A stretch of 64,000 nt of DNA from Marsupella aquatica (taxonomy: Eukaryota > Plantae > Marchantiophyta): NCBI GenBank assembly GCA_973895155.1, contig OZ316899.1, positions 7,257,241 through 7,321,240 of the forward strand. Reading direction: 5' to 3'. Below the pieces are notes generated by a model. That model searched no databases. It saw only the letters and a program-made list of their open reading frames with translations, and was not told the DNA's origin. Numbering within the stretch: position 1 is the first letter of the stretch; every line of letters starts with the position of its first letter. Of this stretch, positions 20,110 to 54,989 are shown one piece after another. A program made the position numbers and the translations under genes.

Positions 20110-23100
20110 CACTAGAAGAAAACCTGTGTTTTACTACTACAGGCCCTGCAACTACTTTGCCTAAATAACTCATACGTGGTGCCAAACACTGTTTTTTTAA
20201 TGGGTTGTAATAATCTGCATTTTATTACTCTACTTAGAACTATGTTACCTTAATCACTGATTACAACTCTCCTTTTTGCCACTAAAACTTACATCACTTG
20301 AATTAGAGTTGTATATTACACAAATTTGCAAATCACTACAATCCACCGTCCACTACACCGTCGATGTTTACAACTCTATTTTCAACTAAGATTTTACCAC
20401 TGGCAGAAACCACTACAAATACAAATACCACCAATATTTGAATGGTAAAGGTGCTTTTTCAATAAACTCCCAATCAAGTGAATCATTTCCAAGTGATCTC
20501 AATTACTTGAAATAATGTCATTTGTGAACACACCTATTGTTACTATAAATATCACCAATAGTGGAGTCACAAATGAATTTTGTCAAAGTAACTTTAAAAT
20601 ATTTTAGTGACAAGGACATTTTTACAAACAACTTAAGATTGAGTGGATTATTTGTCACTGTCCAAAAGTCTTTAAATAAAGTCATTATTATCACATATTG
20701 TACAACTACAAATGTCACTCATATTAGAGTCCAATAAATATCATTTGATGCAACTTTAGACCAAGTGTCACATTCTCCATAGTCCAAAATCACTCTAAAG
20801 AATGTCATTCTCTTCATACATTTTATTAACTCCAAATGCCACTAAGAGTAGAGTGCCAATGCAGGGCCTTGCAAATGACTTGAAATGAAGTGGATCATCT
20901 TCCATTCTCAGAAATCACTATAAATAATGTCATTCTTTAAATACATTTTGCAACTACAAATGCCACCAGCATTAGAGTGTCAAAACAATTTTGACAATTG
21001 ACTAAAAATTGGGCAGATTATTTTGTGATGTCCAAAACCTCTCCCAATGATGTCATTATCAACAAACATTTTCAGTCAAGATATGCATGCCACCCGAATT
21101 ACAATGGCAAACGAATTATATTTTACAACTTGTACCCAAACCACTACAGAACAGGTGGTTATAGGGTTTTGGGCACCTGTCACTTGAAATACCACCGTGT
21201 TTTGAGTTGGGAAAATTATGTGTTTAAACTTGCCATGAATTGCATTTATATGTACCAGCCCAAACCACTTCACATAAGGTCGTTTCGAGCCCTCACCTTT
21301 TGGCAACTACAAATTACACCCGTATTTGAGTCATGCAACACACATTGGTGCGACCACTTGCTATGAACTAGTGCTAAAAGGAGTGAATTGTGTGGACGCA
21401 TCACATAAGCTCCATATTTGTAATTCCGTAGAGTCTTGGAGTGATTTGGGTGGAGTTCATGATGTTCCATAACTTGTGTGCCTCAAATCTCTTCACCTTG
21501 GCATTTTATCCGTCACAACCTCATTGTTGTTGCTATAACTAGTTGGCACACATGATGGGGGTGTCCCACGGCTTCACCATGGGGTGGCTAACACAGAGGA
21601 ATTGTGATGGCGGCGGGCCCAACCCTCCTCCTTTAATGATGGCCCTCTGAGAATTGTCACAAGGTGGATCCACTTCTCATTATCCATTGTAAGTTTGTCA
21701 CTCCCCAAATCACTAAAAACTCTGTTCTTCAAAACCCTCATTTCTAGCGACTAACATTATCACTCAAGCTGGGGTGGTAAATCACGCATCCCTCTAAACA
21801 ACTTCTCATAAAGTGGTAGTCCTAGGGTGAGTACGTATTGGTCCCAAACCATTACAAATGAGGTGGTTTTAGGGTTTAGGGCAAATGCAACTTAAGATAC
21901 CACCGTTATTTGAGTTGAGAAGTAAATTGGGTGTGAACACTTGCAGTCAAGTGCATTTGAGTGTACCAGCCCAATTGACTCAAAAAAAGGTCCTTTGAGG
22001 CCCTCGCCTTTTGGCGACTACAAATTGCACCCGTATTTGAGTCATGCAACACACTTTAGTGCAATCACTTGCCATGAACTAGTGCTAAAAGAAGTGAATT
22101 GTGTGGACGCATCACATAAGCTCCATCGTTGTAATTCCGTAGAATCTTGGAGTGATTTGTGTGGAGTTCATGATGTTCCATCACTTGTATGCCTCAAAGT
22201 TCTCCACCTTGGCATTTTATGCGTCCCAACCTCATTGTTGTTGTTATAACTAGTTGGCACACGTGATGGGGGTGTCCCACGGCTTCACCATGGGGTGGCT
22301 AACACGGAGGAATTGTGATGGCGGCGGGCCCAACCCTCCTCCTTTAATGATGGCCCTCCGAGAATTGTCGCAAGGTGGATCCACTTCTCATTATCCATTG
22401 TAAGCTTGTCACTCTCCAAATCACTAAAAACTCTGTTCTTCAAAGCCCTCATTTCTAGTGACTAACATTATCACTCAAGCTGGGGTGGTACATCACGCAT
22501 CCCTCTAAACAACTTCTCATAAAGTGGTAGTCCTAGGGTGAGTACGTATTGGTCCCAAACCATTACAAATGAGGTGGTTTTAGGGTTTAGGGCAAATGCA
22601 ACTTAAGATACCACCATTGTTTGAGTTGAGAAGCAAATTGGGTGTGAACACTTGCAATCAAGTGTATTTATATGTACCAGCCCAATTGACTCGAAAAAAG
22701 GTCCTTTGAGGCCCTCGCCTTTTGGCGACGACAAATTGCACCCGTATTTGAGTCATGCAACACACTTTAGTGCGACCACTTGCCATGAACTAGTGCTAAA
22801 AGGAGTGAATTGTGTGGACGCATCACATAAGCTCCATCTTTGTAATTCCGTAGAGTTTTGGAGTGATTTGGGTAAAGTTCTTGTGTGCCTCAAATATCTC
22901 CACCTTGCCATTTTATGCGTCACAACCTCATTGTCGTTGCTATAACTAGTTGGCACACATGATGGGGGCGTCCCACTGCTTCACCATGGGGGGGCTAACA
23001 TGGAGGAATTGTGATGGTGGCGGGTCCAACCCTCCTCCTTTCATGGTGGCCCTCCGAGAATTGCCGCAAGGTGGATCCACTTCTCATTATCCACTGTAAG

Positions 23101-23500
23101 TTTGTCACTCCCCAAATCACTAAAAACTCTGTTCTTCAAAGCCCTCATTTCTAGCGACTAACACTATCACTCAAGTTGGGGTGATACATCACGCATGCCT
23201 TTGAACAACTTATTGTGAAGTGGTAGTCCCAGGGTGATGGTTGTTCACAAACCACTGCAAATGAGGTGATTTTAGGGTTTAGGGCAAATGCAACTTAAGA
23301 TACCACCGTTATTTGAGTTGAGAAGTTAAATTGGATGTGAACACTTGCAATCAAGTGCATTTGAATGTACCAGCCCAATTGACTCGAAAAAAGGCCCTTT
23401 TGAGCCCTCACTTCTTGTGGATTGAAGGTGAATGACTTGCACTTCTGGACCTAGCTTCACTCCATGATTGACAAATTGAGCACTAGATTTAGATAGGATA
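20110..23500. mobile_element. CACTA (En/Spm) element end, non-coding
   Basis: CACTAGAAGAAAA terminus at exactly the point where homology to family X stops; many subterminal actacaa/cacta motifs. Right boundary uncertain. Confidence 0.7.
21130..23410. repeat. ~711-bp tandem repeat (~3.2 units)
   Basis: tgtaccagccc at ~21251, 21962, 22673 and 23366; units carry a (degenerate) ttttagggtttaggg. Confidence 0.92.
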
Positions 23501-26004: not shown

Positions 26005-27052
26005 TTATTTAATCGTCAAGATGTATCCATACTTTGCCCGTTTTTGGCTAGCGCCAAGCGCTAACCACAGGACACACTTCTTTTTGGAGACAAAACTCCT
26101 ATCTCTTTTGCCCATTAGAAAAGATAAATGCCATTTAGAGTTGTTCAACATTCCCAAATTGTCTAAATGTCCATTTGATATTGTCGACCAAGTAGGTAAC
26201 GGACTTTGCCCAATGTGGGAACTGGTTTGACTTGATAATATCGGATCATGAAGATCCAACTTCAACACATTCCTAAATACCCAATATAGATATTTGCAAG
26301 GCATGTAGGGTTTTTTGTAAATGTGTCGACGGTAAAAATCCTCACACGAGCAACAAGGGAAACAACAAATCTGAACCCAATAAGAGGTTGCAGTCCTCTC
26401 ATGTTCATGTGTTCTAATACAATATTGTTTTCCCCAAGCATTCCCACTCATGACATCTCTCTTGCATATCAATCTCATTATTTCTTTTTCAGATGCTTCA
26501 ATCTTCTTGTAATGTGTTTGAGTTAGATTCACTCTTTGCAAGCACTTCCTTCCATTCCTTGAGGGACATCTCAAAATGGGGTCTGCCAAATTGATCATCT
26601 CCTCGAACAGATTCACATCAATGCGTAACTTGGATGAGGATGGCTCCTGAGAACCTTCCCCTCTCTCTCCTTTCACAATTAGTTCTTGTTCTCTCAAGAA
26701 TTGGATCTCGCCCTCCTGAAGATTGGTCCCTCTCGCAATGGGAAGAATGGATGGTACATTGGGAATGTTTGAAACACCTCTTCTTTGTGACATTTGTTAT
26801 TTGGGCAAAACCATATCTGGTCTGAGTGGGGCTCTAAACTAAAAAGTCTACATCCTCTCACTGATATTTCCACAACTCCTTCTGGATTTGGACACCCAAT
26901 CTTCTTTACTCAATTTTGACATTCATTTTGGCTCCCTCTCCAACCAAGGGTTCCATTGCAAGCAAGACCAGCACCACATTTTGAAGTTTGTCAGAGATGC
27001 CACACCTAGAGCTTTATCACTTTCCATGGGGAGAAGAGAGTCTTCAGGCGCG
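26005..27052 (-). pseudogene. MULE copy 2, C-terminal part with SWIM finger
   Basis: YWVQICCFPCCSCEDF..PCKYLYWVF and WFCPNN, homologous to 13341-14414. Confidence 0.8.
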
Positions 27053-27659
27053 TGTCGTGCGCATACACATCGCTACACATCATACATCGCTTGTCACATA
27101 CATCCAAACATAGTCATATTGCCACATCACAAACACCAGAGAATGGAATACAAGTGAAACTCATGTCCACACATGTCCAAAACCCACAATAATCTCAATA
27201 CAATTGGCACAACGATCCCGGTCAACAATACCCCATTGATCCCGCACCGATCCGATCACACACGTATCTCAAGCCAACGCACCTTGCACTACTCAAGGAA
27301 TCCACGTTACACAAACAAAGCTCACAACCACCATAGCCACTCAAGATCCTCTCTCTCTCCAAGGCTCAACATTGAAAGATGACCTTTCAATGCCTCACAA
27401 GTGAGAAGTACCCTCTCACACAAACCTGACGGAACCTTATCGGCTCATATAGCACACATACCAAACATACAGATCTAGATAGTACGATACACTCTAACAC
27501 TACCTAGAATGGTGTGACAGCTGTCGTGCGCATACACATCGCTACACAACATACATCGCTTGTCACATACATCCAAACATAGTCACACTGCCACATCACA
27601 AACACAAGAGAATGGAATACAAGTGGAACTCATGTCCACACATGTCCAAAATCCACAAT
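27053..27659 (-). repeat. 3' terminal repeat complex, + strand order A(27053-27190)-B-C(27326-27519)-gc-A(27522-27659)
   Basis: Two 138-bp A copies; C matches 41446-41637; G-tract (gctaggggggcg on minus) abuts the inner A. Confidence 0.92.
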
Positions 27660-27832
27660 CGCCCCCCTAGCTGGGAGTAAGGTCCCCTAACTCTAGCTAG
27701 CCATGAGTTCTACAAGGTTGATATACACCTTTTTAGGTGTGAAGATCAGGAGGCCGGGTGCAAGTGAGCCCCATCGATCACCTACCTGCAATCCATATCT
27801 GCCAAGAGAACACAAATGATAACTAGTCGGCT

Positions 27833-29320
27833 TCATCGACACTGAGGACACAACCATGATCCACTAGGAATCACCTACAATGGTGGTGTCAAACATGATA
27901 TGTGTCATCCTCTAGAACACTTATCACAAATCAACATAGTAGTTGCTCCCTGAGCACATCCACACAACATACATTTCAAGCCAGCACGAACATGTGCCAA
28001 GCTTGGATATACTGTACCGTCAATGTTGGGAAGGTGACATGGTGCACAGTTGCGCACATGATCCTTCCAAACCATACCATCGCGTCCCTCCAACATCAGG
28101 ACACCAGAAGGCAACACTTCACGCACACGTAAGATTGTCCGGCCTGCGGTCACATCAAGTATTGTGGGTGCTGTCTGCTGCAAATAAACATAATCACCAG
28201 GATGAAATCGTCGAATGCTTGCACACGCGGTAACCTCCTCCACGAATAGTGGCATATCTCAAAGTATCACGATGTTGGGCAATGGCAAGGTTGTCAAAAG
28301 CCATGGGCATCACTCTCTGAAATACCCGTGCTCTCTCTAAACACACCTTGATCCAAACATCAGGATCATCCAAGTTCACAACTGGTGCAGCATCACGACA
28401 AATAGTTGCTGGCAAATCTGGCTCTCTACCATAGAGCAAAAAGTAAGGTGAGAAGGATGCAAGTGATGCTTGCCGACTGAAACGGTAGCCCATAGCTAAC
28501 CAAGGTAGCTGGAGATCCCAATCTCCCAGATGACCAACCTGCAAGCCATACTTACGCAATCCTCTCTTCATAGTTTGCACAACTCTCTCAGCTAATCCAC
28601 CTGCCTCAGGATGATCACAAGAGGTAGTACGATGATCAATCAGAGCTTGTTCACACAAACTCTCAAACTCTCCACGGAACTCAGTTCCCTGATCAGTCAA
28701 CACCTCAGTTGGTGCTCCAAAATGACTAAGTACATGATCCAAAAATGTAGCAGCAACTCCTCCACTGGCTTTATCTGGCAACGCCACTAGCTCAATCCAC
28801 TTGGAGAAGTGCTCCACCATGACCAAAACATACCGATTATGACGTTGCGTAAGAGGTAATGGACCAGCAAAATCCAAACTCCAACGATATCCCAAACCCA
28901 TGATCGGCAATGGGTGCAACTAGGGAGTGGGAATATTAAATGATGCTCTCACTCTATCACATACCACAAACTTAGCTATCAACTGCTGGACATGAGTGTG
29001 CATACCACGCCACCAATACTGTGTCTGCAGCAAGCTATAAGTACGCTTCACACCAAAGTGACCCAACTCCTCGTGTGCATGTCGCACCAAATATACTCGT
29101 TGTGATGGTTTTGGTACCACCAACACCCTACCATCATGCGGTACTCTCAAAAGATGGTTTCCCTCCCATCGAAACCTCTTGGCTCTCTGTAGAACCTTGT
29201 CACGTTCTTTGGCATCAACAATGCCAACAATAGAACCATTGCGCAGATATTCCAACACTCTCACATCATTGTGAATATCTTGTTGTCCAGAAGTTACCTC
29301 ACCAACATCCACATCTGAAG
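27833..29320 (-). pseudogene. Integrase (HHCC + DDE) and C-terminal PHD finger
   Basis: HEELGHFG..C.VC, WSLDFAGP, TDQGTEF, GLAERVVQT and CMLC..MLICDKC..WH..C..W.C..C. Confidence 0.9.
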
Positions 29321-29325
29321 ACTCA

Positions 29326-30879
29326 TCATCCACTCCATCCAATGAGGTAGAGTCCACAGCCATTGTATGCTGGCACCCAACAAAGAAAGGCAGATGCATG
29401 CCATCCTGGCACCATCTTCTTATCTAACTCATTATGCCATCTCGCTCCAGTCTCATCCTGCTGACTAGTACATGGATTGCGGCTTAATCCATCTGCATCC
29501 AAGTTCACTTTTCCAGGCCTATGCACCACCTGGAAATCATACTCCTGTAACAACAATGCCCATCGTGCAAGCTTCCCTGTAAGCTTGTCAGACTCCATTA
29601 ACCACTTAAGAGGCTGATGATCAGTGATCAAGGTGAAGGGGTTACCAAACAAGTAGCAACAAAAGTGTGCAACAGCCCACACTGCTGCCAAACACTCTCC
29701 CTCATAAGAGCTATACTTAGTCTCTGCTGAATTGTTTGATCTACTAACATAAGCCACAACAAACTCATTCCCCTCATCATCCTTCTGAGTCAGCACTGCT
29801 CCAAGTCCTACTCCACTCCAATCAGTGTGTAGCTGAAATGGTCTGCCTGAAATGGGTCTTCTCAAAATAGGGGATGATGCCAAACTTTGCTTCAACTCCT
29901 GAAAGGCATGCTCCTGGTCATCACCCCAAATCCATTCCTGATCCAACTTAGTGAGTATGGTCAAAGGTTTAGCAAGCTGGCTAAATCCTTTAACATACCT
30001 CCTATAGTAGCTCGCCAATCCCAAGAACGCACGAACTCTACTCACATCAGTAGGACAAGTAATCTGTGTAATGGCCTCCACTTTAGTCTGCTGTACATCC
30101 AATCCCTCTGGGTATATAGTGTGGCCCAAATACTCAATCTGTTCTTGGAAGAACTTACACTTGCTAGGATGGAGTTTCAACCCATGTGCTCTCAATCTCT
30201 CCAACACAATCTACAAGTGCTGCTGATGTTCTTCCACAGTAGAAGAATAGACCAAAATATCATCAATATAACATCTGACAAAATCCAAACCTGCAAGGAT
30301 TCGATCCATGACTCTTTGGAACTCAGCTGGTGCATTCTTCAACCCAAATGGTAAGAATAACCACTGATACAAACGATCTTTGCCATAAGAATCAATCCCC
30401 CAGAATGTTGTCTTGGACCTATCAGCATGCCTAATTGGAAGCTGATGGTACCCTGCCCTCAGATCCAATGAACTGAAAACCTTTGCATGCCCCACAGCAT
30501 CAAAGATCTCCTCAGGTGTGGGCATGGCATATCTATCAGATTTTGTCTGGCGATTAATGGGTCTGTAATCACCACACATGCGCCTATCTGTGTAATTGCC
30601 ATGCACATCCTTCTTGGTTGGCATCACTGTGGTAGATGCATACTCCCCATATGAAATCTCCACCAATCCAGCCTCCAATAAATCTTGAGTTCTGCTTTGA
30701 ATCAGAGCTCTCTCCATGTCATTGTAATGGTATGGCCTACAAAAGATTGGCGCATCACTAGCCAATTCAATCTGAATACCAAGACCCTTTAATGTCCCCA
30801 AATCCTTCATGCTAAATGCAAAACAATTCCAGTAACTCTTCAGGAATTGATGCATGCAACGTCTCTCCTCCCCTGTCAA
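29326..30879 (-). pseudogene. Gypsy reverse transcriptase and RNase H
   Basis: RMCGDYR, LDLRAGYHQ, PFGLKNAP, YIDD, HTDWS and TDHQPL; stop at 30211. Confidence 0.93.
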
Positions 30880-31149
30880 CTTAGGGCCAAGCTATGGTTC
30901 CCAACTCTCCACCAAATCCCTAATATCTCTTTGTAGGGTAGAAGAGATAGCTGATGATTGTTATTTAGTAGTAGATTGAGCAGTCCCTTCCTGCTCAACA
31001 ATCTGTCCAGCCTTGGCCAATCGTGCCATAGGTCCATGGACCGTCTGCTCACCCCCAACTGTGGTTAGTATTGTCTCAGTGGACCGCAAGCTCACCAAGG
31101 GACAATCAGTAATTCTAGCATAGCGCATCCGCAACCGTTCAGCTACTCC

Positions 31150-32110
31150 CAAGCTGATAATCCAAGTCAAACAATTCAGATCCATTGCTTGACCAAGAAC
31201 CTGGCGCCACAAACCCTCTGACACAGAGGCAACTGCAGTGGTGCCAGTAAAAAATCCCATAGCACGCTCTCTCTCATCAGCAGTAGGCTCCACTAACTGC
31301 TGGAGAGCTGTGTCCCACACAAGTCCAGGGCCACCTGCTCTTAATGCATATGAAGCAGAGTGGCTTACAAGAGTGGGTAATGCACAACATGGGCGCCCAA
31401 CTGCATTGACCATTGCCAATGGAGGTCTATCAGGTTGGGTCACACCCTGTGCACAATGCCCTGGATCCAAAATATCATCCACCACTAAGGCTAGTGAGCG
31501 TGGAATGCTGTCAAATGCGCGCTTCAGCACCTCACATGGGATCAAATTGGTCCACCACAAGCGTGGACGATGTGCACGGGAACCCACACGTGCAACATCC
31601 AATAACACAACAAGTCCAATCCAAGACCTCACCTGGTGAATACTGGCAACAAGCCGACTATGATCATCACCTAACAATGGCACATTCTCCAAAATGTATG
31701 CTGGAGATTGTGTCTGATGTAGCTAGAGATGACGCAGCACCAGTAACATTTCACAAAACAATGCAGAGCGTGGATCATGAAGTCCATGCCCAACGCCGGC
31801 TCTAGATTGGCCCTGACATGGCCAATCAACAATCACCAAATCAATGGGGCCAACACGATGCAGATGATCCGCGCCCAGCAATGAAATATCAGTAGGTAGT
31901 GCATGCTGATAACCACGAACAGCATCCACTGGCAGCAACTATGGATATCTATCCACCAACATAGCCACATGTTGCAATGAGACCCTCTGTGCTGTCTCAT
32001 CTGTATCCACATACAAATAACGACGCACAGGAATTCCTGCCTGAAGAACAGCAGCCAATCCAGTGCTAATCCCACCAAAAAGATCCAACAAACAAATACC
32101 CTCCGATGGA
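31150..32110 (-). pseudogene. C5 cytosine methyltransferase domain (DNMT3-like) in the pol frame
   Basis: Motif I LLDLFGGISTG, IV WPCQG, V GL.DPRSALF, VI LENV, VIII AHRPRLWWTNL, IX ERERAMGF and X LGQAMD, all in one frame with TAG stops. Confidence 0.88.
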
Positions 32111-32181
32111 TACTGCCAAGCAATAGGAGTGGTGTCCAATGGTGAAAGAGTCACAAGTCCATCTGCAAGAGACTGCTCTGC

Positions 32182-34858
32182 TCATGACTTTGGTGTAAAA
32201 GCATGACGCCATGCATCATGTACCAATCGTGCTGCTGTCTGTGGCAAGGCCTGTGCATTGCCCCACACTAGTGGCACAACACTGCCAATAGGTAATCCTC
32301 GCATGATGTGCTCCTCATGTGACTCCTCCAATGGTGGAACATCTGTTGCATGTGCATTACCCTCAATCAAATCATCAGGTCCAGCAATTAGACCACTGAA
32401 TGCTACCAAAGACAATGGTGTGGATTTAGGGCCTCCCATAAGTCCACTAAATCTCACTGGCAATTTGCTCAATTGAGCATCTCCTAACTGCCAATCAGGT
32501 CTATATGACATTGATTCCTCCAAAAAATCAAGAATAAATCCCATGGGGTAGAGCATTGTACATCCCACCAACACATCATATGACTCTGCCTTAGTCAGAA
32601 TAGCTCGCACCTGTATCTATGAGCTATCTGTGGTATGACCTTCCTGAATCCTCAAATCAAGAGGTCTCCTGGTAATGTGCTGTGTAGGTGTAGGTCCCCC
32701 CAATGAAGTCTGAATGGGAAAGGGACAATCCTCCAAATCCTCTGGACGCAATCCCAATCCACGTATGACAGACTTTCCCAACATCAAGGGCTGAGCACCA
32801 GTATCCAGTAACACCCTCTCTGGCTAGTATACTGCTCCAGAAAGCCCAACTAATCAAAAGATACCACTCCGATTATCCAATGATACAACACTAGGTTTAA
32901 ACCTAGTCCTCTCAAATGCAGGGCGTGCTGGTAAATCCACCAAGCTCACTGCTGCTGCATGCCATGTCTCACTAGTAGCAATAGGTGGCATGGTCTTCAC
33001 TGCATCAACATTGCAAGTTGCTTCTGCATGGGAAGCAACCACTGGAGTGTCCTCACAGAGTGTAGCTACCAATCTGAACACTTCTGTAGGACCAACTCCC
33101 AAGTTCAGCATGTCTGTCGCTGAAAATAATGGGGTGCGTACTATGGTAGTAGCCGCCCCCAGCAGGGTACCTGTCATCCCTGCTGCATCACTACCTGATT
33201 CTACCAACTTACCCACGCCAGGGTTTGTCCGAATCGGGTTCATAGAGGCAGTCTGAACTGTCTCTGACAATGTAAAAGACTGAGGAAACTTTGTTTGCCG
33301 ACGTGCATCCCCCTTTGTGGATCTAACTCCACTACTGCTCCTCAGGGCTCAAGAGCTTTAGCTGCCCCACGTGTCAAAGCTGCTGATGCATCAATATGTG
33401 CAGTGCCACACAGAATCCCATGGTGGCAAGGTCTCCATCAGCTCCATAAGATGTGGAAGGACCATGGGATGTGGAAGGTCCATAGGATGTAGATGCCCCA
33501 TCACCAGAAGTAGGTCTCATCTGAGAACTAGCCATGGAAGCTAGCTGTTGCTCCAATTGAGCAATCTTAGCATCCTTTGGATCTATGGTTACAGTAGGGG
33601 CAGCGTCACCTCCCTGTCTCCCTACATGTGGCATGCCACGACCACGTCCACCACCTCTACCTCCTCCTCCTCTTCCTTGATCATGTGTACGGGATCCTCC
33701 TCTTCGTAACTCAAGGTGGAGTGAGAAACACCTATCCTTGGTGTGTCCAGGAGCTCCACAGTGATCACACTGTCGCTGATTAGGCGTTGATGCTCCCCCT
33801 GATCCTCTATGATCTGGGCAATATCTCTGTGCATGATCCCCACCACAGGTCCAACATCCTGACTGCTGTCCAACATAAGAGGGCACAGGTCTCTGGCTGG
33901 TAGACTCTCGTGCAGTAGGCTTCTCCCTCTGGCTCTTCCGTGCAGTAGGCTGTGGTGTGGATGTAGATGCAACCTTTGGTGCTTCCTTGGCAAATCCGGA
34001 AGTCACCACCTTCTCATTCACCATATTGAGCTCAATACGCTCAAAAAGGGTAAAAACAACTACTAATGTGGGATCTGCATCCCTAAGCAGGGTGACATCT
34101 CTCACTCTGCGTCGCAATTCTCTTTTCAAAATTGCATACCAAAACTAGACTGCCTGAGCCTTTGTCACTCCCTTGGTGACAGTGATCAATCTGCGCATAC
34201 GAGTGTATGCCTCACATAGACTCTCTCCAATTTTGCGCTGGAACTCCTAGAGACCCTTCAACTTATCAGCTCTCACACCCTGATAGTTTTGCTTCGGTAC
34301 CTCAAAGAATTCCACCACAGGGTTAAATACTGGTGCAACTCCAGTTCTTGTCACAATCGCACCGGCAGGAGTAGCGGTGGATGATGCTGGAGTGCTGCTG
34401 GTGGATGGTGTGCCACTCTGGCTAGTGCTGCTAGAAGAAGCAGCAGCTGTGGCAATGGGTTGGGCAGCCGCACTAGTGCCATAGGTGATGGACACGTAAT
34501 TAGGCGACCAATGCTGCCTCCATGCCTCAATCTCAACCAAATGAGCCTTCTGAAACCCATGGTAGTCATCCATGGGTGGCCCCTCCAAATGCTGAAATAA
34601 TCCCTTCCATGCCATGAAAGGGGTAAACAACGTGGCGTTACGCAATGTCTGCATATTGCACCACGTATCAAACTCTTGGATGAAGTCATCCAGATCAATT
34701 GTGCCAACTGCACCAGAGCATTGTCGTGGGCCCTTTGTAGCCCCGTACATCTTGTCCATATCCCACAACAAAGGTACAACCACCTGATGACGAGGAGAAC
34801 TGGTCATTGAGTCCTCGTCGGAATCACTATCTGAAGCTGCACTGCTGACTGCTACCAA
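32182..34858 (-). pseudogene. gag (two CCHC knuckles, RG-rich tract) and aspartic protease
   Basis: CWTCGGDHAQRYC, CDHCGAPGHTKDRC, VLLDTGA and DVLVG. Confidence 0.85.
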
Positions 34859-35407
34859 TGCCGCTGGCCAAAATTACGCCCCACTCTGAGTGAAACCGGT
34901 CCGTCGTCCATCGGGTAACCCAGCAGCACCAGAAGAATCCGTGGTGACCAACCTAACCGAATCTATATGATAACCCTAAGGGAAATCTGTCCTTGTCAGC
35001 AACACAAACACTCACCATGGTGTATTGGGCATCACTCCAACATCACCAGGAGAGAAATACGTAGCACAACTAGAATATCCGGTTGCAAACCCGGATCACT
35101 CCTATAGAATCAAGCGCCCACGCCAAACTAACATGGTGCATAAACAGGAAGCATATGTGGAGAGGATCCAATCAACAAGAAGAGATCCACAATAACTCTC
35201 CACATCAATAGTGATCATACATCAATCAAACAATGTTCATAATGTTCAATGTGGGGCCTTCATAATAGGCCTCCAATGTTCAATGTCGTAGCTAAGGATC
35301 CATGCACAATTGGTTCAATCCATGCATCTAGATGGATTCAGAAGCATCAAAAACCTTCAGGGAGCTTATGATTTGCCCCAAAATGGCAATCTAAACAAAC
35401 TAGTATG

Positions 35408-35571
35408 TGTTGTGTGACAATGGAGAGACTTGCAACTCGCTATTGTGTTCCATTATGGGTGTGACTTATATAGTCACCATAGGGTTACATGTTGGGGTTG
35501 GTGTTAACCCATGTTACCCCTTCAGGATAGGGTTAGGGGTTAACCATGGTCTAGAGTAAATGGTTACAACA
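35408..35571 (-). repeat. Copia 3' LTR
   Basis: TGTTGT..ACAACA, identical to 41032-41195. Confidence 0.95.
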
Positions 35572-35933
35572 CTTCCCCTTGGAGAGTTTAGGGGTATAAA
35601 ATCACCACACTACTAACCCTATGTTTATTTTTGGTGCTACCCCATTAAAACCTTCTGCTTTCTTCATAAGGAAAAAGGGTTCTAGCCACCATTAGTAGGA
35701 TTTTCTTAAATTTGCACTAAGGTGAGTCTACCTTATAATTTGTCCAAATGTAAAGTTTAATTTGGGTCCCCTATTACTAAAACTACTTCCCCTTAGTTTA
35801 AATGGGGTGTTTACGATAATAATTATTCTATCTTGTATTGGTATGAAAAATCGTATTCTGTCTATGTATACAGGAACGAAAGTTTTAGGTTGCATCGTCG
35901 TCGAGTCGGCTGTCGTCTGTCGGCTCGAGCTGC

Positions 35934-38900
35934 TCATTCAAACTGTGGAGTTTCTCTCGTTTGTGTGTCGACGGGCAGGCGCAATGTCGACAATCTTGTC
36001 ATGCCGATCGCTGCTACGTGCTTTCGATGGAGGCTGGCGGGTAATGGCTTCGTGAATAGATCAGCACAGTTCTCCTGGGAGCTCTTCCAGTGCACATTGA
36101 TGTGCTGCCCTATCTGTTCATGGGTAAAGAAAAATTTTGGGTCGATATGCTTCGTGCGGTCTGTCTTCATATATCCTGCATTGATTTGGTCCACGCAAGC
36201 TTTGTTATCTTCATGGATAATCGTCGGTTTGGTGAGTAGTGGCTTACCAGTATTCTTGCGGATGTGGTTTATGATGTTTCGAAGCCATAGCGCTTCTCTT
36301 GTTGCTTCGTAAAGAGCTATTACTTCTGAATGATTGGACGATGTGGTAGTCAAGGTTTGTTTTGTACTGCGCCATGATATTGCTGTGTTGCCTTGCAAGA
36401 AGACATAACCAGTCTGAGATTTCGAGTCATGCGGATCGGATAGATATCCAGCGTCCGCGTATCCTTGCAGTTCATCCGGGTTATCATTGGCGAAATACAG
36501 GCCCATATCCATGGAGCCTTGAAGATAACGAAATAGTCGTTTGATGCCGTTCCAGTGGCGAATAGTAGGTTGGGCGCTATGTCGTGCCAAGAGACTCACT
36601 GCAAATGAAATGTCGGGACGGGTGTTGTTCGCCAGATAGAGGAGAGCTCCGATTGCAGATAAATAAGGCTTGTCTGCATCAAGAAGTGGTTCATTTTCTT
36701 GTCTCCTTCTAAACATATCTTTAGTGGTGTCCAGGGATCGCATCTCCATGGGAGTCGAGACTGAGTAAGCATTTTGCATGTTAAACTGTCGAAGAATTTT
36801 CTTTGTGTAAGTTGATTGACTAATAAACATACTTTGTGGCAGGTGGTCGAACTGTAGACCGAGGCAATACGTCGGTTCTCCCAGTTCTTTCATTTCGAAG
36901 ATGCCCTTCATTGTATTAATAGTCTGCTTTAATAGCTTGGGGGTGCCGAACAGATTGACGTCATCAACATATAGTGCTAATATCACGAACTCAGGTGCTA
37001 GGTGTTTTATAAAAATGCAAGGGGCGAGGTCGTCATTTATAAAGCCAAGAGTCTGCATCTTAGTTTTGAATGTCTGATACCAGATGCGTCCGCTCTGTTT
37101 CAGTCCGTTTATTGATTTAAGGACTTGCACAGCAAATGCCTGCTGTCCAGTCCCATATTTACCTGGGTACTGGAGTGGTTCTTTGAGTGTGTTGCCACTG
37201 CTCAACACTAGGCCTTTAATGTCATCATCAGGGACAATCTGTCGAAGTCCCGACTTCATGTCCTGACTTAGGGTATGTATATTCTTCCCCTGGATGTGCT
37301 CTACCACTCTTTCGAGCAATTCCTTTGGAGCTTTCATATATATTTCGGAGTCTAAGACTCCATATAGGTACGCAGTTACCACATCCATGAGTATGTTTTT
37401 GAGTTTATGCTTTCTTGAAAAAGATATTAAGTACCTAAAGGTAGTTACATCCATAACTGGCGAATAGGTTAAATCGTAATCCCTTCCAGGGATTTGGGTG
37501 TAGCCTTTCGCTACAAGCCTTGCTCGATATCTTATGACATCTCCTTGGGCATTGCGTTTTCTAACGAATATAAAACGACTATCTGTATAGTCATTCTTTG
37601 GTTGTACAACCTTAACTGGGCCGAATACTTGTCTTTTGATTAATGCGTCCATTTCTGTATTGATAGCCTCTCTCCACTGTGGCCAATCGGGCCTTTTCTG
37701 TGCTTCTTTGATTGTATAGGGATCAGGTGTATCATTTGAGATGGATTGGGCTATATGATAAGCAAACTGCTCGTCTATTATTGTGTTTGATCGAGCATAA
37801 ATGTGTCCTGTGTGTGTGTATTGAATAGACATTTCTTCATTATCTGGTGCCCTCTTTTTCTCTGGTTCGATACTGACCAGATTAAATGTGGTTTCAGTAT
37901 TTACCGTTTGTGTACGTCTCTGGCGAGGGCGAGAATCAGTGGATCCTAGTGGGCGTCCTCTCTTCGCCTTAGGTAAGGTTTCCTTTGCTTGAGTTGGCAG
38001 CAGCTGAATCCGAGCTGGGGTATTGACTGCTTCAACATGTGATCTGGTCACATTTGCTGCGTCATTGAAAGCGTCAGGAATCTTTTCCAACATTTCGTGG
38101 AGATGTAATAAGCGCCTTACCTCCTCGTCTGCACTTTGAGTTCTTGGATCTTGATTGAGTAGATTTCTGCTATTCCAATTGAGCTGTACTGGTGTTATGT
38201 CGTGTGATGTAGTTGGCGCCTTAAGTAATGAGGGGAAAATTTCCTCATAGAAATGGCAGTCAGTGTGTCTTGCTTTAAATACATCAGCTGTGCTAGGTTC
38301 CAGATAGCGGATAAGAGACGAGGAGTCATGGCCAATATAAATACCTTCTCTCCTCTGTGGGCCAAGTTTGGATCGATGTGGCCCAAGGATGGGTACCATC
38401 ACTTTACATCCGAATACTCTAATGTGTGAAAGGTCAGGGGGTAAACCGAATGCAAGGTGATGAGGGGTTTTAGTATTAAATGCTGACGGCCGATACTTAA
38501 GCAAAGTTGTTGCATGGAGGACAGCGTGTCCCCATGCTGAAGGTGGTAGTTTAGAGTTCAATAGAAGTGGCCTTGTTATCATTTGAATCCTTTTTATGAC
38601 TGACTCTGCTATGCCGTTCTGGAAATGGACGTAAGGAACTGAGTATTCAATGTCGATCCCCGCTGTCATACAGAAGTCGTCAAATGCTCTGGAGGTAAAT
38701 TCCCCTGCCCCGTCCACTCGCAATTTCTTAATTGGACAATCTGGGAATTGTACTCGAAGTTTTAATAAGTTGGCTAAGATTCTGGCAAAGACCAGGTTAC
38801 GAGTAGAAATTAATGAAACGTGGAGCCATTTAGTTGAAGAGTCTACAATGGCTAAAAAATATCTGAAAGGCCCACTTGGAGGGTGTATTGGCCCGCAGAC

Positions 38901-40574
38901 ATCAGCATTTAGACGTTCCAGGAATTTAGGGATAGTATAGATGGTCTTTTGTGTAGCTGGGCGTGTACTCAGCTTCCCCTGAGAACATGCAAGACATTGC
39001 TTATGATTTATAGATGGACGCACTCCTTTAGGGATTCCTCGTGAGTCCTTGATGATGCGACGGTACATATTTATTCCCGGGTGCCCCAGTCGACAGTGCC
39101 AGAGGTATGTAAGATTATTTGATTCTGCTGTGGCATAGTTCGCTGTTATTGGGGCTGCATATAAACCCGGGGGTATTAGAGGTAGTATCTCTTTGATTTG
39201 AATTCCATCTGTGGTCATGGCTACTATTTGCAAAGTAGGTTTCTGCTGGATCATTGCTGTGCGGAGTTGATAATTATTAGCAACAATGTCTTTGAAGCTA
39301 ATCAAATTTCGAGTAGCTTTTGGTGCAAAGATAGCTGCTTCGATGTTAATGACTGTTCCTTGGGGAAATTTGACAGTAGCCTTTCCTGTTCCTTCCTCAA
39401 TCTTATTCGTACCTGATATGGTTGTCATTATCCTGGCAGATGGAGTGATATCTTGGAAATAACTCCTATCTTTTAGGATAGTGTGGGATGTCCCACTATC
39501 AATGATACCTAAATTGGGATCGTTGGAGGAGGGATATGGTGGCTCTTCTGTCACCAGATGAGCTTCAGCGTTGGATTGGTCTATCGTATCATTTTCTTCT
39601 CGATAAGATGGTAGCTCCTCTTCCAATTCCATATAGTTGCCATCTGGATTTTGCTTTAACTTAGCTCTTGCTTCTGAGTGCCTCTTAGCCGCTTGGTCAG
39701 AAGCCCAGCAGTCTTTCTTTAGGTGGCCAATTTTTCCACATCTATAACACATTCGGTCTTCTCGTGTGTTGTCAGATGATTGGGCGTGACCTCTGCCGCG
39801 TCCTCTTCCTCTACCCCGGCCACGGCTTCTGCTGCCTTGACCTCTAGTATTTTCATACTGATTTCCCCTTCCACTATAATTTGAGTTGCGACCTCGTCCT
39901 CTATATCCACCTCTTTGTGTACCCCGGCCTCTTATATTTCGTTGTTGGTCTTCTGGGGCATTGTAATTAATTTCTGGTTTCTGTGGTATAGGTGCAGTGC
40001 CTGGTGGTCGTTTCCTTGCATTCTGTATAGAGACAATTTGTTGTTTCTCCTCTACTAGGAGATGTGCAATTAAGTTAGAATAAGTTGTGAATTGCATATT
40101 CCTGTATTGAGTTCCCAAGGCGATGTTGGCCTCTGGGAAAGTACTCAACGTTTTATCGATTTTGTCTAAGTCTGCAACTGGGTGGCCACACATCTCCAAT
40201 TGAGATGTAATACGAAATAGAGAACTATTATAATTTGCTATAGAAGTATGATCCATGACACGTAGATTAAACCAATCCCTGCGGGCTTCTGGGAGCCAGA
40301 CCTCTCGCATATGGTCAAATCGAGCTTTTAATTTGTCCCATAATAGACGGGGATTAAGATCACTCATATATTGTGTCTTCAGTGATGGTGTCAAATGCTG
40401 TCTAAGTAGAAATACAGCTTTGGCCTTCTGTTGCAATGTTAAATTGTCATCAGTAATTAATGTATCCTCTAGTTGTATTGATGCGAAGTAGGTCTCTACA
40501 TCTATTGACCAGGTTAAGTAATTATTGCCATCTGCCAATAGGGCTGGAAAGTGTAATTTCTCCAGGGTGGCCAT
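35934..40574 (-). CDS. Copia gag-pol polyprotein (gag, CCHC, protease, integrase, RT, RNase H)
   Basis: CYRCGKIGHLKKDC, IIDSGTS, LWHCRLGH, VDGAGEF, NGIAES, YVDD, YADA, HEDNKA and ADLFTK; uninterrupted. Confidence 0.96.
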   Translation of the reverse strand: MATLEKLHFPALLADGNNYLTWSIDVETYFASIQLEDTLITDDNLTLQQKAKAVFLLRQHLTPSLKTQYMSDLNPRLLWDKLKARFDHMREVWLPEARRDWFNLRVMDHTSIANYNSSLFRITSQLEMCGHPVADLDKIDKTLSTFPEANIALGTQYRNMQFTTYSNLIAHLLVEEKQQIVSIQNARKRPPGTAPIPQKPEINYNAPEDQQRNIRGRGTQRGGYRGRGRNSNYSGRGNQYENTRGQGSRSRGRGRGRGRGRGHAQSSDNTREDRMCYRCGKIGHLKKDCWASDQAAKRHSEARAKLKQNPDGNYMELEEELPSYREENDTIDQSNAEAHLVTEEPPYPSSNDPNLGIIDSGTSHTILKDRSYFQDITPSARIMTTISGTNKIEEGTGKATVKFPQGTVINIEAAIFAPKATRNLISFKDIVANNYQLRTAMIQQKPTLQIVAMTTDGIQIKEILPLIPPGLYAAPITANYATAESNNLTYLWHCRLGHPGINMYRRIIKDSRGIPKGVRPSINHKQCLACSQGKLSTRPATQKTIYTIPKFLERLNADVCGPIHPPSGPFRYFLAIVDSSTKWLHVSLISTRNLVFARILANLLKLRVQFPDCPIKKLRVDGAGEFTSRAFDDFCMTAGIDIEYSVPYVHFQNGIAESVIKRIQMITRPLLLNSKLPPSAWGHAVLHATTLLKYRPSAFNTKTPHHLAFGLPPDLSHIRVFGCKVMVPILGPHRSKLGPQRREGIYIGHDSSSLIRYLEPSTADVFKARHTDCHFYEEIFPSLLKAPTTSHDITPVQLNWNSRNLLNQDPRTQSADEEVRRLLHLHEMLEKIPDAFNDAANVTRSHVEAVNTPARIQLLPTQAKETLPKAKRGRPLGSTDSRPRQRRTQTVNTETTFNLVSIEPEKKRAPDNEEMSIQYTHTGHIYARSNTIIDEQFAYHIAQSISNDTPDPYTIKEAQKRPDWPQWREAINTEMDALIKRQVFGPVKVVQPKNDYTDSRFIFVRKRNAQGDVIRYRARLVAKGYTQIPGRDYDLTYSPVMDVTTFRYLISFSRKHKLKNILMDVVTAYLYGVLDSEIYMKAPKELLERVVEHIQGKNIHTLSQDMKSGLRQIVPDDDIKGLVLSSGNTLKEPLQYPGKYGTGQQAFAVQVLKSINGLKQSGRIWYQTFKTKMQTLGFINDDLAPCIFIKHLAPEFVILALYVDDVNLFGTPKLLKQTINTMKGIFEMKELGEPTYCLGLQFDHLPQSMFISQSTYTKKILRQFNMQNAYSVSTPMEMRSLDTTKDMFRRRQENEPLLDADKPYLSAIGALLYLANNTRPDISFAVSLLARHSAQPTIRHWNGIKRLFRYLQGSMDMGLYFANDNPDELQGYADAGYLSDPHDSKSQTGYVFLQGNTAISWRSTKQTLTTTSSNHSEVIALYEATREALWLRNIINHIRKNTGKPLLTKPTIIHEDNKACVDQINAGYMKTDRTKHIDPKFFFTHEQIGQHINVHWKSSQENCADLFTKPLPASLHRKHVAAIGMTRLSTLRLPVDTQTRETPQFE

Positions 40575-41018
40575 AGTATCTCAAATCTGTAACAAATCAC
40601 TGTCCGCGTTCTGATTAATATCAAATCTATGTCGTTCTCAATTACTTCAATCACTCGTGCCTTTTTATCCACGGGATTTTCCTTGGCGATAAAAGAAACT
40701 CAGGATTTCCGTGGCGGAACAATAAGATATAAAAAAAATTGAGTCGAATTTGAACGGGAAAACACTATTTCAAAGTGATTCATGCCTCTCCGATAGTGTC
40801 ACTAATCAATTATATACGGATTGTGTGTTTTCCGTAAGGATTCGTGGACTATTCAGAGGATCCGAAGTTTAAATTATGGTGTGATTTGAATCGGTGGCAG
40901 TTACTGATGTGGGGTGGGGCTAAAAACGCAACATTGGAAGTCAATTTCTTTGTCTGAAAGCCGTACTCCAATTATCCTACCTTAACTCCAAACTGTAAAA
41001 AAAAAAATTAGATGCTAT

Positions 41019-41031
41019 CGCGCTGATAACG
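41019..41031 (-). promoter_or_regulatory. Primer binding site, internal (half) tRNA-iMet type
   Basis: CGTTATCAGCGCG immediately after the 5' LTR. Confidence 0.8.
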
Positions 41032-41195
41032 TGTTGTGTGACAATGGAGAGACTTGCAACTCGCTATTGTGTTCCATTATGGGTGTGACTTATATAGTCA
41101 CCATAGGGTTACATGTTGGGGTTGGTGTTAACCCATGTTACCCCTTCAGGATAGGGTTAGGGGTTAACCATGGTCTAGAGTAAATGGTTACAACA
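41032..41195 (-). repeat. Copia 5' LTR
   Basis: Identical to 35408-35571. Confidence 0.95.
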
Positions 41196-41445: not shown

Positions 41446-41637
41446 AGCCACCATAGCCACTCAAGATCCTCTCTGTCCAAGGCTCAACATTGAAAGATGA
41501 CCTTTCAATGCCTCACAAGTGAGAAATACCCTCTCACACAAACCTGACGGAACCTTATCGGCTCATATAGCACACATACCAAACATACGGATCTAGATAG
41601 TACGATACACTCTAACACTACCTAGAATGGTGTGACA
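41446..41637 (-). repeat. 5' terminal repeat C of the DNMT-Gypsy element
   Basis: Matches only 27326-27519; A and B are absent at this end. Confidence 0.92.
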
Positions 41638-42560
41638 CGCGGCCTCAGCTTCATGTCTGACGGGAGAAACACACGAGCTTGTCATTTGACGTGAGGTGTT
41701 TTCAGGACCACGACCTCCTCATAATCTTCACTTTCACTTTGAGACAAATTAACAACGCCACTTCCACTAGCAAAAGGCATGGAAGACATCTTCTCAACGT
41801 CTATGGAATGAAGGTTTCTCCTTTTCAAACCTCTTGTATTTGGTGAAGTCACAAGGATAGTATCATGTTTGTGAGAGTCTTGTGCCGAGACATTCCCAGT
41901 TGCATGTCCTTTTTGTTTCACTGATCAAGTTATCATTGGGGTTATCATGTCTCCATTCAATAGAACAGTTCTTTCCAAATCAAATTCAGTTGCTTGGAAA
42001 GAAGTAGATTGGTGGCTTCTTCAAATAGACATGGAGACCCTGCCATGTCTACGGATCTGAAAGCCAGCTCAAAGATAGTTGGTCCAATTCCCCTATGTAA
42101 TCCTCGACCGTATGCAGTGTAAGTTGCAATCTGGCATACGGCTCTGTTTTGGTCAGTTTTGCATCCCTCCAAGAGGCCAACCTGCTTCTTCATTTTCCAA
42201 GCTTGCACGCTTGTGTGCATTGATTCCAAACTAGTACAATTTGGAATCATCCCAACCTCCTCAGCACTCTTGCTTTGTGACAAGAAATGAATAGAAATAT
42301 TTAGTGTATTATAAACAAAAGTACTTAACAATATGTATTGGATTCATGTCAATGTGGATGAACTCTTAACCTTAGTAGCGCGTGGTGCTATTAAATATGC
42401 AGTGTAAATGCCATGGCTGCAGTTCCATTTTGAACCACATTCTAATCTCACAATGTGCACAAAATTCCAGATTTTACATTAGCGCTTGGCGCTACTATTT
42501 TGAACAGGAGCAGGGGACGTGTCGTTCACATTTTCCAAAGTAGCATCGGGCGCTATAATT
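41638..42560 (-). pseudogene. MULE copy 2, upstream part (DDE core exon not seen)
   Basis: MIPNCTSLESMH..EGCKTD.NRA..G.GPTIFELAF matches 12840-13235; tagcg..cgcta palindromes continue to ~42557. Confidence 0.75.
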
Positions 42561-46790: not shown

Positions 46791-48330
46791 AATCATCCTA
46801 GAAACTAAGTCCTTCCCCCTCATGAACCAAGATAATTTGCTCTGCCCCTTTGATTTCAGGATAGTGTCCATCGCACTCGCGAACTGGATACATCGGAACC
46901 CTTTCAGGGACATTAGTTTGAAGCCATGAATTTCTTCCCTCACCTTTGGAAGTGTCCAAGATGTCGATGACATTGACGTGTGTCACGCCAAAAGATTCAT
47001 CCTTAATTGGATTTTGGCTTAGGCGGCCATAAACTCCGTAAATATTGAGGGTTCGGGCAAGGAGGGATGTGCGGACGGTACTTTATTCCCGTAACTTGAT
47101 ACTAAATGTGCCAAACCATATCCTTACACACATCATAGGTATAATTTGTATTCCGGCGCCGGAACGTACCTTAAGTCGATAGCTAGTTTGACCCTGGCTC
47201 AAGGACTTCTAAGCCTTCGTGCTATCCGCCTTCGATCCAATAATAACCGCTATCCGCAACCAACACCCCATGCCCAGCTCGTATAGCGCGTTCGGCCAAG
47301 CATTCTTTACCCGTACACAAGATTTACAATTGCAACAGTATTCACAACATACAATCTTGATTTACACAAAGGAAATAGTGGGGAACAGACTTTACTTCAG
47401 AATCCGTTTATGCACATACACACGGTTGACTCGACTTCTTCTAAATAACCAGGCCCAACGGCAAAGACGCGTACACTACAATGGAGCCCGGCTCCGCACT
47501 TGCCCAATGAGTTGAGTTGTACCCTCAATCCTTGGAGCTCAATTATGCACAAAGGCTGGGACTCCTCGCACATCCTGCGGATACCCATTTTTGAACCTAA
47601 ACCCCCCCAGGCTGCCTCTACCGGGGGTGCACTAAATACTAAGAGCCGTGGCTAGAAGTGGTCACGTGCTTGAGTTCTAGCCTATGCTAATCCTAGCTAA
47701 ATGCCAGTCTGCTAAATGGTTTGTCGTTACCCTAAGATGCTACGCTAAGGAAAGTTGTCAGAGCCGCTCTAACTAGTTTTGGCGCTCGTCGGTAGTGTCC
47801 TACTTTTGTGGCTAAATCTACGCTACTCTAAACTATTAGCGTCGCCTAATGTCTGGCTCGCTTGCTAGATCCACCCGAGTGGGACTTGGATCGGCCGTCC
47901 TGCTGCTTCCTCAGCTTGTCGACGTCTTGCTTGAGGATCTGGACCTGGCCATGAGAGAATCATTCTCTCTTTACCACATCCATCTCCTTCGTGGCCTCCT
48001 GGCACGCCTCTTCCAACTGCTGACCGTCGCTCGTCAGGTTGATCACCAGTTGGTCTTGTTTAGCTGCTTCTACTTGAAGCCATACCACCGCCGCCTTTAG
48101 GGCATCCACCTTGGCCGTATCCCATTGGGCCCGAACGTCGGCCTTCTCTAGGTCCTTCTGCCAGATTATGGCTTGCCCCTTCAAGCTGTCAATTTGGGCT
48201 GAGAGTCGTAAGATTTTGGCATCTTTTCCGGATCCGGCCTGCTCGACCAAGGCTAACTTGGCTTTGGTGTTGGCAACCTGGGCGAGGGTGGTTGTAAGCT
48301 GAGGACAGAGACGCTCTAACTTGGTATCTT

Positions 48331-53184: not shown

Positions 53185-54709
53185 AACTTGGTATCTTGGC
53201 CAAAGGCTTCATTTAAGAGTTTGGTTACCTCATCCTGATATCGCTCAATCTTCACTGTGGCTTTAGCATGAGCCCGTCCTGCCTTCATTGCCGCCACCAG
53301 CTCCTCACTGAAGAAATAGGCCACCTTGCTGGCCATGAACTCCCCCATCTCTTGGCTAATTTGTTGGGAGAAGTCTCCCAGCAGTCCGTTCAAATATGTG
53401 CCCAATGCAAAGAGTTCCAGGTTCACCAAGTTGTGCCCACTCGGGTTCGGGCAAGCGCAGACCTCTACTCAGGAAGAGGCGAGGGTTGTTACGTTCAGCT
53501 TGGAGGCAGGATGGTTAGAGGGGGCAAGGCGCCCAACAAGAGGGTCAACTGGCATTGGTGCGGATGGTACCGCAGTTTCCTCCCATCTAATGGACTCGGG
53601 CTTAGGGCCAACTTCCTCCTGCTCAACGGTCACTACAAGGGCCTGGTCTATCTAGGGTTGCAATTACCGCCAAATCTAGCACCAAAGAAGGTGCCTCAAT
53701 GGCTGGTGGTGGGGCTGGGGTGGGTACTACTGGTGCTAGAGCCCGGGCTTTGGGCTGGGGACGTCATGCTAGCGCCGGAAAGACCCACCGGGACGGGGTG
53801 AGCTCAAGCTCGTTGAGCCGCGGGAGGGTTTGTTGTTCAAAACGGGCGTACCACTCGATAATAATCTCAATGTGGCTTGCAAGGTACGCCTTCCCACCAA
53901 GATACAAGGTCTTTCTTTGTCGGTCCACCTCCTCGTGGAACTTCTTGACAAAGAAGGAAACCCAATTTCTAGGCCGATCGTTCTCGACCTGGATCACCTG
54001 AGCGGCAGATATCTCTCCCCGCGGCTCCATCATGTGGAGGGCATAACATCGAAACTCCAACCGCTCCGCAATCTATGGGATGAGGCATGTCCTCATCAGG
54101 AATCCGTTGTCCACCAAACCCTTAGGCAGGAAGCTCGAGGATTGGTACTTTGCTCCCTTGCCACCTAGGGCCCGTGACTCCACCCGTATTTGATCCTCGG
54201 GTAGGCCAAAAATGAGCTTAAGCCGCTCCTCATTTAAAGACATTACCCGTCCATGCGCACGGGTCTGTTGGCAGGCCTCGTCAAAGTTTTGGATGAACTC
54301 CATCATGTCTTGCCCGTAGTACTTGCAAGTGTTCCAAGGGAGGGCGGCGAGGTGTTCAAACCCCTGGGTCTTCAGGTATGCTACATGCTTTGGATGGAGG
54401 ATTTTCTTGTGAACATTCTCCCCCATGCAATGCATGGTCAACTTGGCCACAGCGATGATGGCCACGGATAAACCGGATACTGCAACCAACTCCTTCCTCT
54501 CCCTTCCCCGAGAGTTGTTCCAGGGATGGCTCGTAGAAGAGGACATCTCCCCGTCTTCCCTATCTGGTAGGGGTAGCGCAACCGCAATCAAAACTGGTGT
54601 CGGGGTCACAACGGTCACCGTTGTCGTGGGCATTCTTTGTTTAGTAAGTTCCTCCTAAGTATAGCTTAGTAGTATAGGATAGTAGTTTGAATTCTCGCAT
54701 TATATGTAG

Positions 54710-54942
54710 TCTATAGTGTGCATGCTATAGTGTACGGTCTACAGTGTGCATGCTATAGTGTATGGTCTACAGAGTGCATGCTACAGTACACGGTCTACAG
54801 TATGCATGCTACAATGTATGATCTACAGTGTGCATGCTATAGTGCAAGACCTACAGTGTACATGCTACAGTGGACAATCTACAACATGCATGCTACAGTG
54901 TACAATCTATAGTGTGCATGCTACAGTGTACTACCTATAGTT
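54710..54942. repeat. 28-bp minisatellite (~8 units)
   Basis: gtgtgcatgcta(t/c)agtgtacggtctaca repeated with variation. Confidence 0.92.
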
Positions 54943-54989
54943 GCTCCACTCACGTAACTACAGTACTAGCACACTTACTTGCCTTGGAT

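Follow-up and report, generated by a model that had tools for sequence, protein, structure and literature searches.

Analysis of a 64,000-nucleotide stretch of the Marsupella aquatica genome, hereafter the window, identified a decayed Ty3/Gypsy retrotransposon that carries, ahead of its reverse transcriptase (RT), a C5 cytosine methyltransferase domain assignable to the DNMT3 type. The domain lies at the end of the first open reading frame (ORF1), in front of an in-frame stop codon that is conserved across the family. On balance, we favor a reading in which this DNMT3-like enzyme is packaged at the level of Gag, the RT is produced by readthrough of the stop, and the enzyme likely methylates cDNA.

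The element and its methyltransferase domain

The coding domains from gag to a PHD finger span positions ~34873 to 27835 on the minus strand, and their sequences place the element as a decayed Ty3/Gypsy retrotransposon with the order gag-PR-DNMT followed by RT-RH-integrase-PHD. The gag, with a zinc-knuckle region (33420–34873, start not fixed), is frameshifted in this copy relative to the aspartic protease (LLDTGA; 32600–32853; a weak Pfam match, E 0.0018); the two share one frame in the relatives P0155, P0156 and L015. The methyltransferase domain (31138–32103) is the last folded domain of ORF1 and is followed by a 58-codon tail (30964–31137), whose last residue is also the last in the related proteins P0003 and P0155. 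ORF2 contains the RT (30043–30720), an RNase H (29470–29928), a DDE integrase with H2C2 finger and core (28194–29110) and the PHD finger, C-terminal on the integrase (27835–27975). These coordinates, all on the minus strand, confirm an earlier placement of the domain between protease and RT.

At the 3' end of the element, a polypurine tract (27661–27672) immediately precedes repeat B1 (27522–27659), which ends in CACGACA and is followed after 2 nt by repeat A2 (27191–27519, starting TGTCAC), the first 192 nt of which are a 97% match to the 5' repeat. Repeat B2 (27053–27190; 95.7% identical to B1) forms the 3' end of the element (...CA) and a partial repeat A1 (41448–41637) its 5' end (TG...), all on the minus strand, with a CGCG target-site duplication at 27049–27052 on the 3' side and 41638–41641 on the 5' side. 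The terminal layout is A-coding-B-A-B, not two complete identical end LTRs, in the window copy and in L034, L043, L046, L047 and L049 (27 loci self-compared, five with both repeats visible). Duplications of 4 bp were found in five of the six elements with both ends (the window copy, L034, L043, L046 and L049; not L047). This layout fits a circularly permuted LTR with an integrase cut at the B-A joint. CGCG hinted at a preference for CG-rich targets, but the other duplications (AAGG, CATA, GGTC and CCAA) led to its rejection. Inspection of L034 and L046 by eye showed no tRNA primer-binding site, and the 5' repeat in the window is only partial. The inner B-A joint reads CACGACA, 2 nt, TGTCA in every family examined (27520–27521 in the window; 8652–8666 in L015; L034, L043 and L046) and resembles integrase ends paired head to head.

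Read on the minus strand, and sharing the frame of protease and RT, the methyltransferase domain contains motif I (LDLFGGISTG, 32088–32059), motif IV (VDWPCQG, 31830–31810), motif VI (ILENV, 31695–31681), motif VIII (AHRPRLWWTNL, 31575–31543), motif IX (ERERAMGF, 31275–31252) and a motif X-like LGQAMD (31197–31180). The motifs stand in canonical order and the catalytic cysteine is present; the motif numbers follow general usage for C5-methyltransferases. The preliminary description had already read the domain as a DNMT3-like enzyme with canonical motifs, a reading that is supported here. With X at the two premature stops, the query 32181–31137 matched PF00145 at E 6.3e-6, passing the curated cut-off, and the domain retrieved human DNMT3A as its top solved-structure match (E 1.9e-7). 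A 9-row profile of the domain scored DNMT3A at 83 bits, DNMT3B at 75, DRM at 39, bacterial enzymes at 30 or less and DNMT2 at 27–28, with no DNMT1 among its 57 matches. The AlphaFold2 model of the domain of L015, a stop-free relative, had a pLDDT of 91.4, and all 30 of its matches listed were to DNMT3A, DNMT3B or DNMT3C. The ESM Atlas gave generic PF00145 clusters only. The domain is not a DRM, because its motif order is canonical where that of DRM is permuted; nor is it a plant DNMT3 of the host type outlined in the accessible text of PMC6453930, because no DUF3444 follows it, PF00145 being the sole Pfam match in the 572-residue region. By these sequence comparisons the domain is of DNMT3 type, nearer to DNMT3 than to DRM, DNMT1, DNMT2 or the bacterial enzymes.

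The window copy is dead, as had been supposed: its main frames hold 14 listed stops (the family stop and the final one not counted) plus frameshifts. Two of the premature stops lie inside the domain (31941 and 31725). Motif IV reads DWPC where GWPC had been expected; in alignment A1 the first column of this motif holds G in 19/23 relatives, another residue in 2/23 and a gap in 2/23.

The window's second family copy (58486–62519 on the minus strand; 95.6% identity) is interrupted by a different element directly 3' of its methyltransferase, and this truncation leaves it uninformative on whether the domain was present. The intruding element (62520–64000) ends ...GTGACA and has a 66% similar stretch at 47017–48253. 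A young, unrelated Copia element (35408–41195, minus strand) is nested in the leader of the first copy, with identical 164-bp LTRs, a GTATG duplication and an uninterrupted 1548-residue ORF. The window also holds an L1-type LINE (48648–53468; a 940-residue endonuclease-RT frame plus zf-RVT), tandem arrays at 21130–23417, 1781–2390 and 54682–54961 with units of ~711, 169 and 28 bp, and, within 2529–5313, a 592-codon open frame that has no Pfam match and adjoins a DUF7869 frame. No host gene was recognized among the 25 window ORFs scanned, and Rfam gave 0 matches.

Relatives of the element and selection on the domain

The domain recurs in other copies, being present in the loci, proteins and contigs of relatives. 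Named protein relatives came from Marchantia polymorpha, M. paleacea, Riccia sorocarpa, Calypogeia fissa, Sphagnum fallax, S. troendelagicum and Closterium, with Scenedesmus as a named relative of a more distant type; the closest protein match was 83–84%. The M. polymorpha relatives (60–70% identity) are annotated as hypothetical genes, and a bryophyte gene model with PF00145 may stand for the ORF1 of a retroelement and not for a host methyltransferase. In metagenome data, 311 of 600 pattern matches were confirmed and 80 kept. Related contigs spanned 30/30 bins of 30500–32900 in 4/4 runs, and most of their depth lacked the window stops at 31725 and 32184 (40 of 283 differences listed; depth is not copy number). 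There was no relative among viral contigs (0/47 pattern matches); the protein searches returned no host DNMT3 or DRM sequence and, among the matches listed, no Klebsormidium-labelled protein. A domain HMM search returned 524 clusters (50% identity) at E ≤ 1e-30, only part of which were checked as retroelement-borne; methyltransferases of this kind in retroelements are less rare than the preliminary description had stated.

A domain tree built from 99 rows (270 or more aligned residues each) grouped the window sequence with those from liverworts and Sphagnum in a clade of 30 rows (SH-aLRT 100), inside none of those genera. The RT-RH and methyltransferase trees (18 rows) were broadly congruent; in these trees the elements with the domain before RT formed one branch (98/96), and those with the domain after RNase H lay outside it. 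The methyltransferase lies between RNase H and integrase in P0037, P0039, P0041, P0042, P0044, P0051–P0053 and P0267, one of which is named Scenedesmus. The same position was found in 16 of 21 long HMM hits scanned (some with G-patch), which were taken mostly for length from the 150 best. In a sister family (L041, L046 and L049), motif IV reads GWEC, the repeats are split in the same way and RT is not preceded by a stop.

The strength of selection was gauged by Nei-Gojobori estimates of dN/dS, a check that had been suggested at the outset. Most between-family pairs gave domain values of 0.087–0.15, most with dS near saturation, and three pairs were saturated. The values were 0.12 for L015/L017 (dS 0.26), 0.087 for L041/L046 (dS 0.16), 0.09–0.11 against L025, 0.13–0.15 for the window copy against four Sphagnum-like loci (dS 1.65–1.85) and 0.23–0.24 for the window copy against L015 and L025. 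Decayed close copies gave 0.29–0.71 for the domain and 0.19–0.48 for RT. These estimates indicate that the domain is under purifying selection. Neither outcome that the preliminary description named as a refutation, absence of the domain elsewhere or a lack of such selection, was thus obtained.

The conserved stop and the proposed role of the enzyme

An in-frame stop followed by a characteristic hexamer lies between methyltransferase and RT (30955–30963, minus strand), reading TAA CAA TCA in the window copy and TAG CAA TCA in the second copy (62392–62384); related contigs also have TAG. The stop codon (30963–30961) is in frame with RT and closes the Gag-PR-DNMT frame. The preliminary description had put the domain in the pol frame and taken stops as signs of decay. 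The frame is indeed that of protease and RT, but because the stop is conserved family-wide, the domain ends ORF1 instead of lying inside a continuous pol frame, and the stop itself is no mark of decay.

At position 30961, related-contig depth was essentially all for the other stop codon, TAG, in 4/4 runs (19, 33, 6 and 1 contigs), and no other letter was listed at the 3% threshold for 30955–30960 and 30962–30963 in 4/4 runs. Sphagnum-like loci have a stop at the homologous codon in 31 of 32 aligned, with TAR CAA CCC in 29/32. Among database proteins of the clade, 53/58 lack RT, RNase H and integrase, the other five being NCBI gene models, and 38 of the 44 that could be scored end 58–145 residues past the domain. 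The stop clade had a support of 89/86 on the RT-RH tree, and the stop looks derived, with modest support, because the sister family and several others have none.

The letters after the stop match CAR-YYA exactly in four of five context groups, and the fifth (Sphagnum-like, CAA CCC) matches at 5/6 positions. The hexamers are CAA TCA in the window copy and L025 (TAG CAA TCA), CAG TTA in L015 and L017 (TAG CAG TTA in L017) and CAA CCA in L037 (CAA TAG CAA CCA, on a short contig with no RT on it). By chance, CAR-YYA follows TAA or TAG in 48 of 16,941 triplets in the loci (0.28%); only this background count comes from the known-context pattern tally, the conservation count coming from the alignment tally. 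The encoded amino acids differ between groups (Q-S, Q-L, Q-P), and synonymous sites are near saturation. The linkers (417, 474, 597 and 606 nt) each keep the frame. In the accessible text of PMC2754532 and PMC2194720, CAR YYA is the established TMV readthrough signal; one assay in plants gave ~20% readthrough product (PMC2754532). On the 3' side of the stop, six sequences showed no RNA structure in common: their folds differed, and z ranged from +0.13 to −2.93. The uninterrupted L015 has a 1369-codon gag-PR-DNMT frame, TAG CAG TTA and a 1047-codon RT-RH-integrase-PHD frame, in which the first Met comes more than 110 codons in, inside RT; codons 23–116 of this ORF2 are strongly selected (dN/dS 0.07–0.12). 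From these sequence features, the conserved stop is probably passed by TMV-type readthrough. Given the conserved in-frame stop, CAR-YYA and the lack of an AUG before RT in L015, Pol is likely made by readthrough and the methyltransferase at the level of Gag. An excess of enzyme over RT would not be required in all relatives, because the sister family L041/L046 has no stop.

In the reading that we favor, ORF1 (Gag-PR-methyltransferase) would be the abundant product, leaving the enzyme in excess over the copying machinery, and occasional readthrough would yield RT-RNase H-integrase-PHD. The methyltransferase would be packaged at Gag level, freed by the protease inside the particle and would methylate new cDNA before or at integration; new copies would then arrive methylated and could escape or pre-empt host surveillance, which is the likely benefit. 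The PHD finger of the integrase is most like those of CHD4, PHF12, PHF21A, KDM5 PHD1, ATXR5 and UHRF1. Such fingers mostly read H3 tails unmethylated at K4. Because it builds on this likeness, the idea that the finger reads such tails and steers insertion into silent chromatin is only a weak prediction.

As to the substrate, we lean towards the element's own cDNA. The observed/expected CpG ratio is 0.33 in the element, against 0.35 for a further Ty3 remnant, 0.10 for an old LINE and 0.55–0.70 for the least decayed relatives; since these values do not set the element apart from other elements, CpG depletion gives no footprint of self-methylation. CpG depletion likewise lent no support for SymbioDIRS-Dnmt3, though its enzymes are active and methylate CG de novo, according to the accessible text of PMC5890265. 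Transitions between the two window copies (CG 29, CHG 45 and CHH 57, against 152, 277 and 1414 sites) fit host CG and CHG methylation. With expression unchanged, the enzyme might instead act on nuclear DNA of the host or of rival elements or on element RNA, or bind DNA without catalysis. The lack of a CpG footprint is compatible with this, as are the variants GWEC, GFEC and TWEC at motif IV in several relatives, the inactivity in yeast of the Klebsormidium enzyme, a result that its authors call inconclusive (PMC5890265, accessible text), and a Gag-level amount that would be far beyond the need of one cDNA. We consider it rather unlikely, as the catalytic cysteine is kept in 21/21 relatives with residues there and EN in 21/23 (alignment A1), and fusion to Gag would point to the particle, the site of cDNA synthesis. 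A leaky stop predicts the amount of enzyme relative to RT and so bears on whether only the element's own cDNA or also the host genome is reached.

Routes to RT other than readthrough were also weighed. Splicing could remove the stop, with the TAG as a 3' splice site or in an optional intron, and the methyltransferase would still end ORF1. Ogre offers a precedent, with an intron that splits GAG-PROT from RT-RH-INT (PMC6317226, accessible text); TAG fits YAG, the Sphagnum-like group has a T run ahead of it, and the two frames are joined in five NCBI gene models. Yet these joins lie at differing places, none at the TAG, the 22 nt upstream of the stop are only 27–41% T, the conserved letters sit 3' of the stop and match CAR-YYA, and Ogre has a 274-bp spacer between its ORFs where the present family has a single in-frame stop between open frames, all of which makes splicing improbable. 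ORF2 might also be translated on its own, through reinitiation or through an internal promoter, the proposal made for parts of Tca2; this appears about as improbable as splicing, or slightly more so. Reinitiation is possible in the Sphagnum-like group, L017, L025 and the window copy because a Met lies between stop and RT: an ATG two codons after the stop in 31/32 Sphagnum-like loci (GTG in one), which have the imperfect hexamer CAA CCC, and a Met at codons 5 (L017), 14 (L025) and about 36 (window copy). Against it, L015 has no Met before RT, the hexamer is conserved while the Met position is not, and a free RT-integrase would need another route into the particle.

The broken window copy and the second copy (cut there and showing no methyltransferase) might suggest a neutral passenger, whether a fragment taken up from a host gene or an insertion nested there by chance. 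This is hardly credible, and the evidence refutes it: the domain keeps its position across dozens of loci and proteins and is under purifying selection, the RT and DNMT trees are broadly congruent, and related contigs cover all 30 bins in every run.

Comparison with known systems

The question of why a retrotransposon keeps an enzyme of the class that silences it dates from 2018; part of the difficulty is that the hosts known so far do not serve as genetic models and that the Klebsormidium enzyme showed no activity in yeast. The relatives in Marchantia polymorpha offer a place to test it. We tentatively propose, with less confidence than the reading above, that one DNMT3-like enzyme was carried from chlorophytes to land plants by an old PHD-bearing Ty3 clade of the green lineage and shifted from the stretch separating RNase H and integrase to a site ahead of RT, with a leaky TMV-type stop arising in one branch, capsid-level loading, and either pre-methylated cDNA or host methylation in trans as the outcome. 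The Marchantia copies allow a direct test of this proposal.

A Gypsy-borne DNMT3 has been published for Klebsormidium (PMC5890265), and a streptophyte Gypsy-DNMT3 is cited in a 2026 preprint; the 2018 survey table (PMC5890265) lists no liverwort or Sphagnum. In the literature covered, which included few subscription papers and neither the 2018 supplementary figures nor the preprint supplements, we found no report of a Gypsy-borne DNMT3 in land plants or chlorophytes, nor of a CAR-YYA stop in DNMT3-bearing Gypsy elements.

KnitGypsy-Dnmt3 of Klebsormidium nitens (PMC5890265) resembles the present element in its Gypsy domain set, its unrearranged DNMT3-type domain under purifying selection and its DIRS-like repeats (Fig. 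4c legend). Its DNMT reportedly shares the Pol ORF with RT and RNase H, whereas here the domain ends ORF1 before the stop; the sister family L041/L046 shares the same-ORF feature and the window clade does not. The relatives found here reach liverworts, Sphagnum, Closterium and a chlorophyte, KnitGypsy-Dnmt3 being compared by description only. SymbioDIRS-Dnmt3 of Symbiodinium (PMC5890265) is likewise a retroelement with a DNMT3, an A-coding-B-A-B layout and two domain positions among relatives, but it has a tyrosine recombinase, unlike the DDE integrase, TG..CA ends and 4-bp duplications seen here. Membership in DIRS/PAT/Ngaro (tyrosine recombinase, no target duplication) was rejected on the DDE integrase and the 4-bp duplications, and membership in Troyka (CG..CG ends and 3-bp duplications; PMC12440569) on the TG..CA ends and 4-bp duplications.

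EpiLTRs/DAM-LTRs (bioRxiv 10.64898/2026.05.21.726589) are LTR elements too and pair a chromatin reader with a DNA methyltransferase; theirs is a sister of DNMT4 and accompanied by DAM and a chromodomain, in contrast to the DNMT3-like domain and PHD finger here. Host plant DNMT3 (PpDNMT3a/b; PMC6453930) and DRM share the DNMT3-type catalytic domain with the element, whose enzyme differs in having no DUF3444, no introns and unpermuted motifs and in being embedded in a retroelement. The in-frame stop followed by CAR-YYA resembles TMV type I readthrough (PMC2754532), which here is predicted from sequence. In-frame stops between retroelement ORFs occur likewise at the gag-pol junctions of Tca2 and MuLV, and stop suppression in SIRE1 (PMC2194720); these known stops lie at gag/protease or pol/env, whereas the present one separates protease-methyltransferase from RT.
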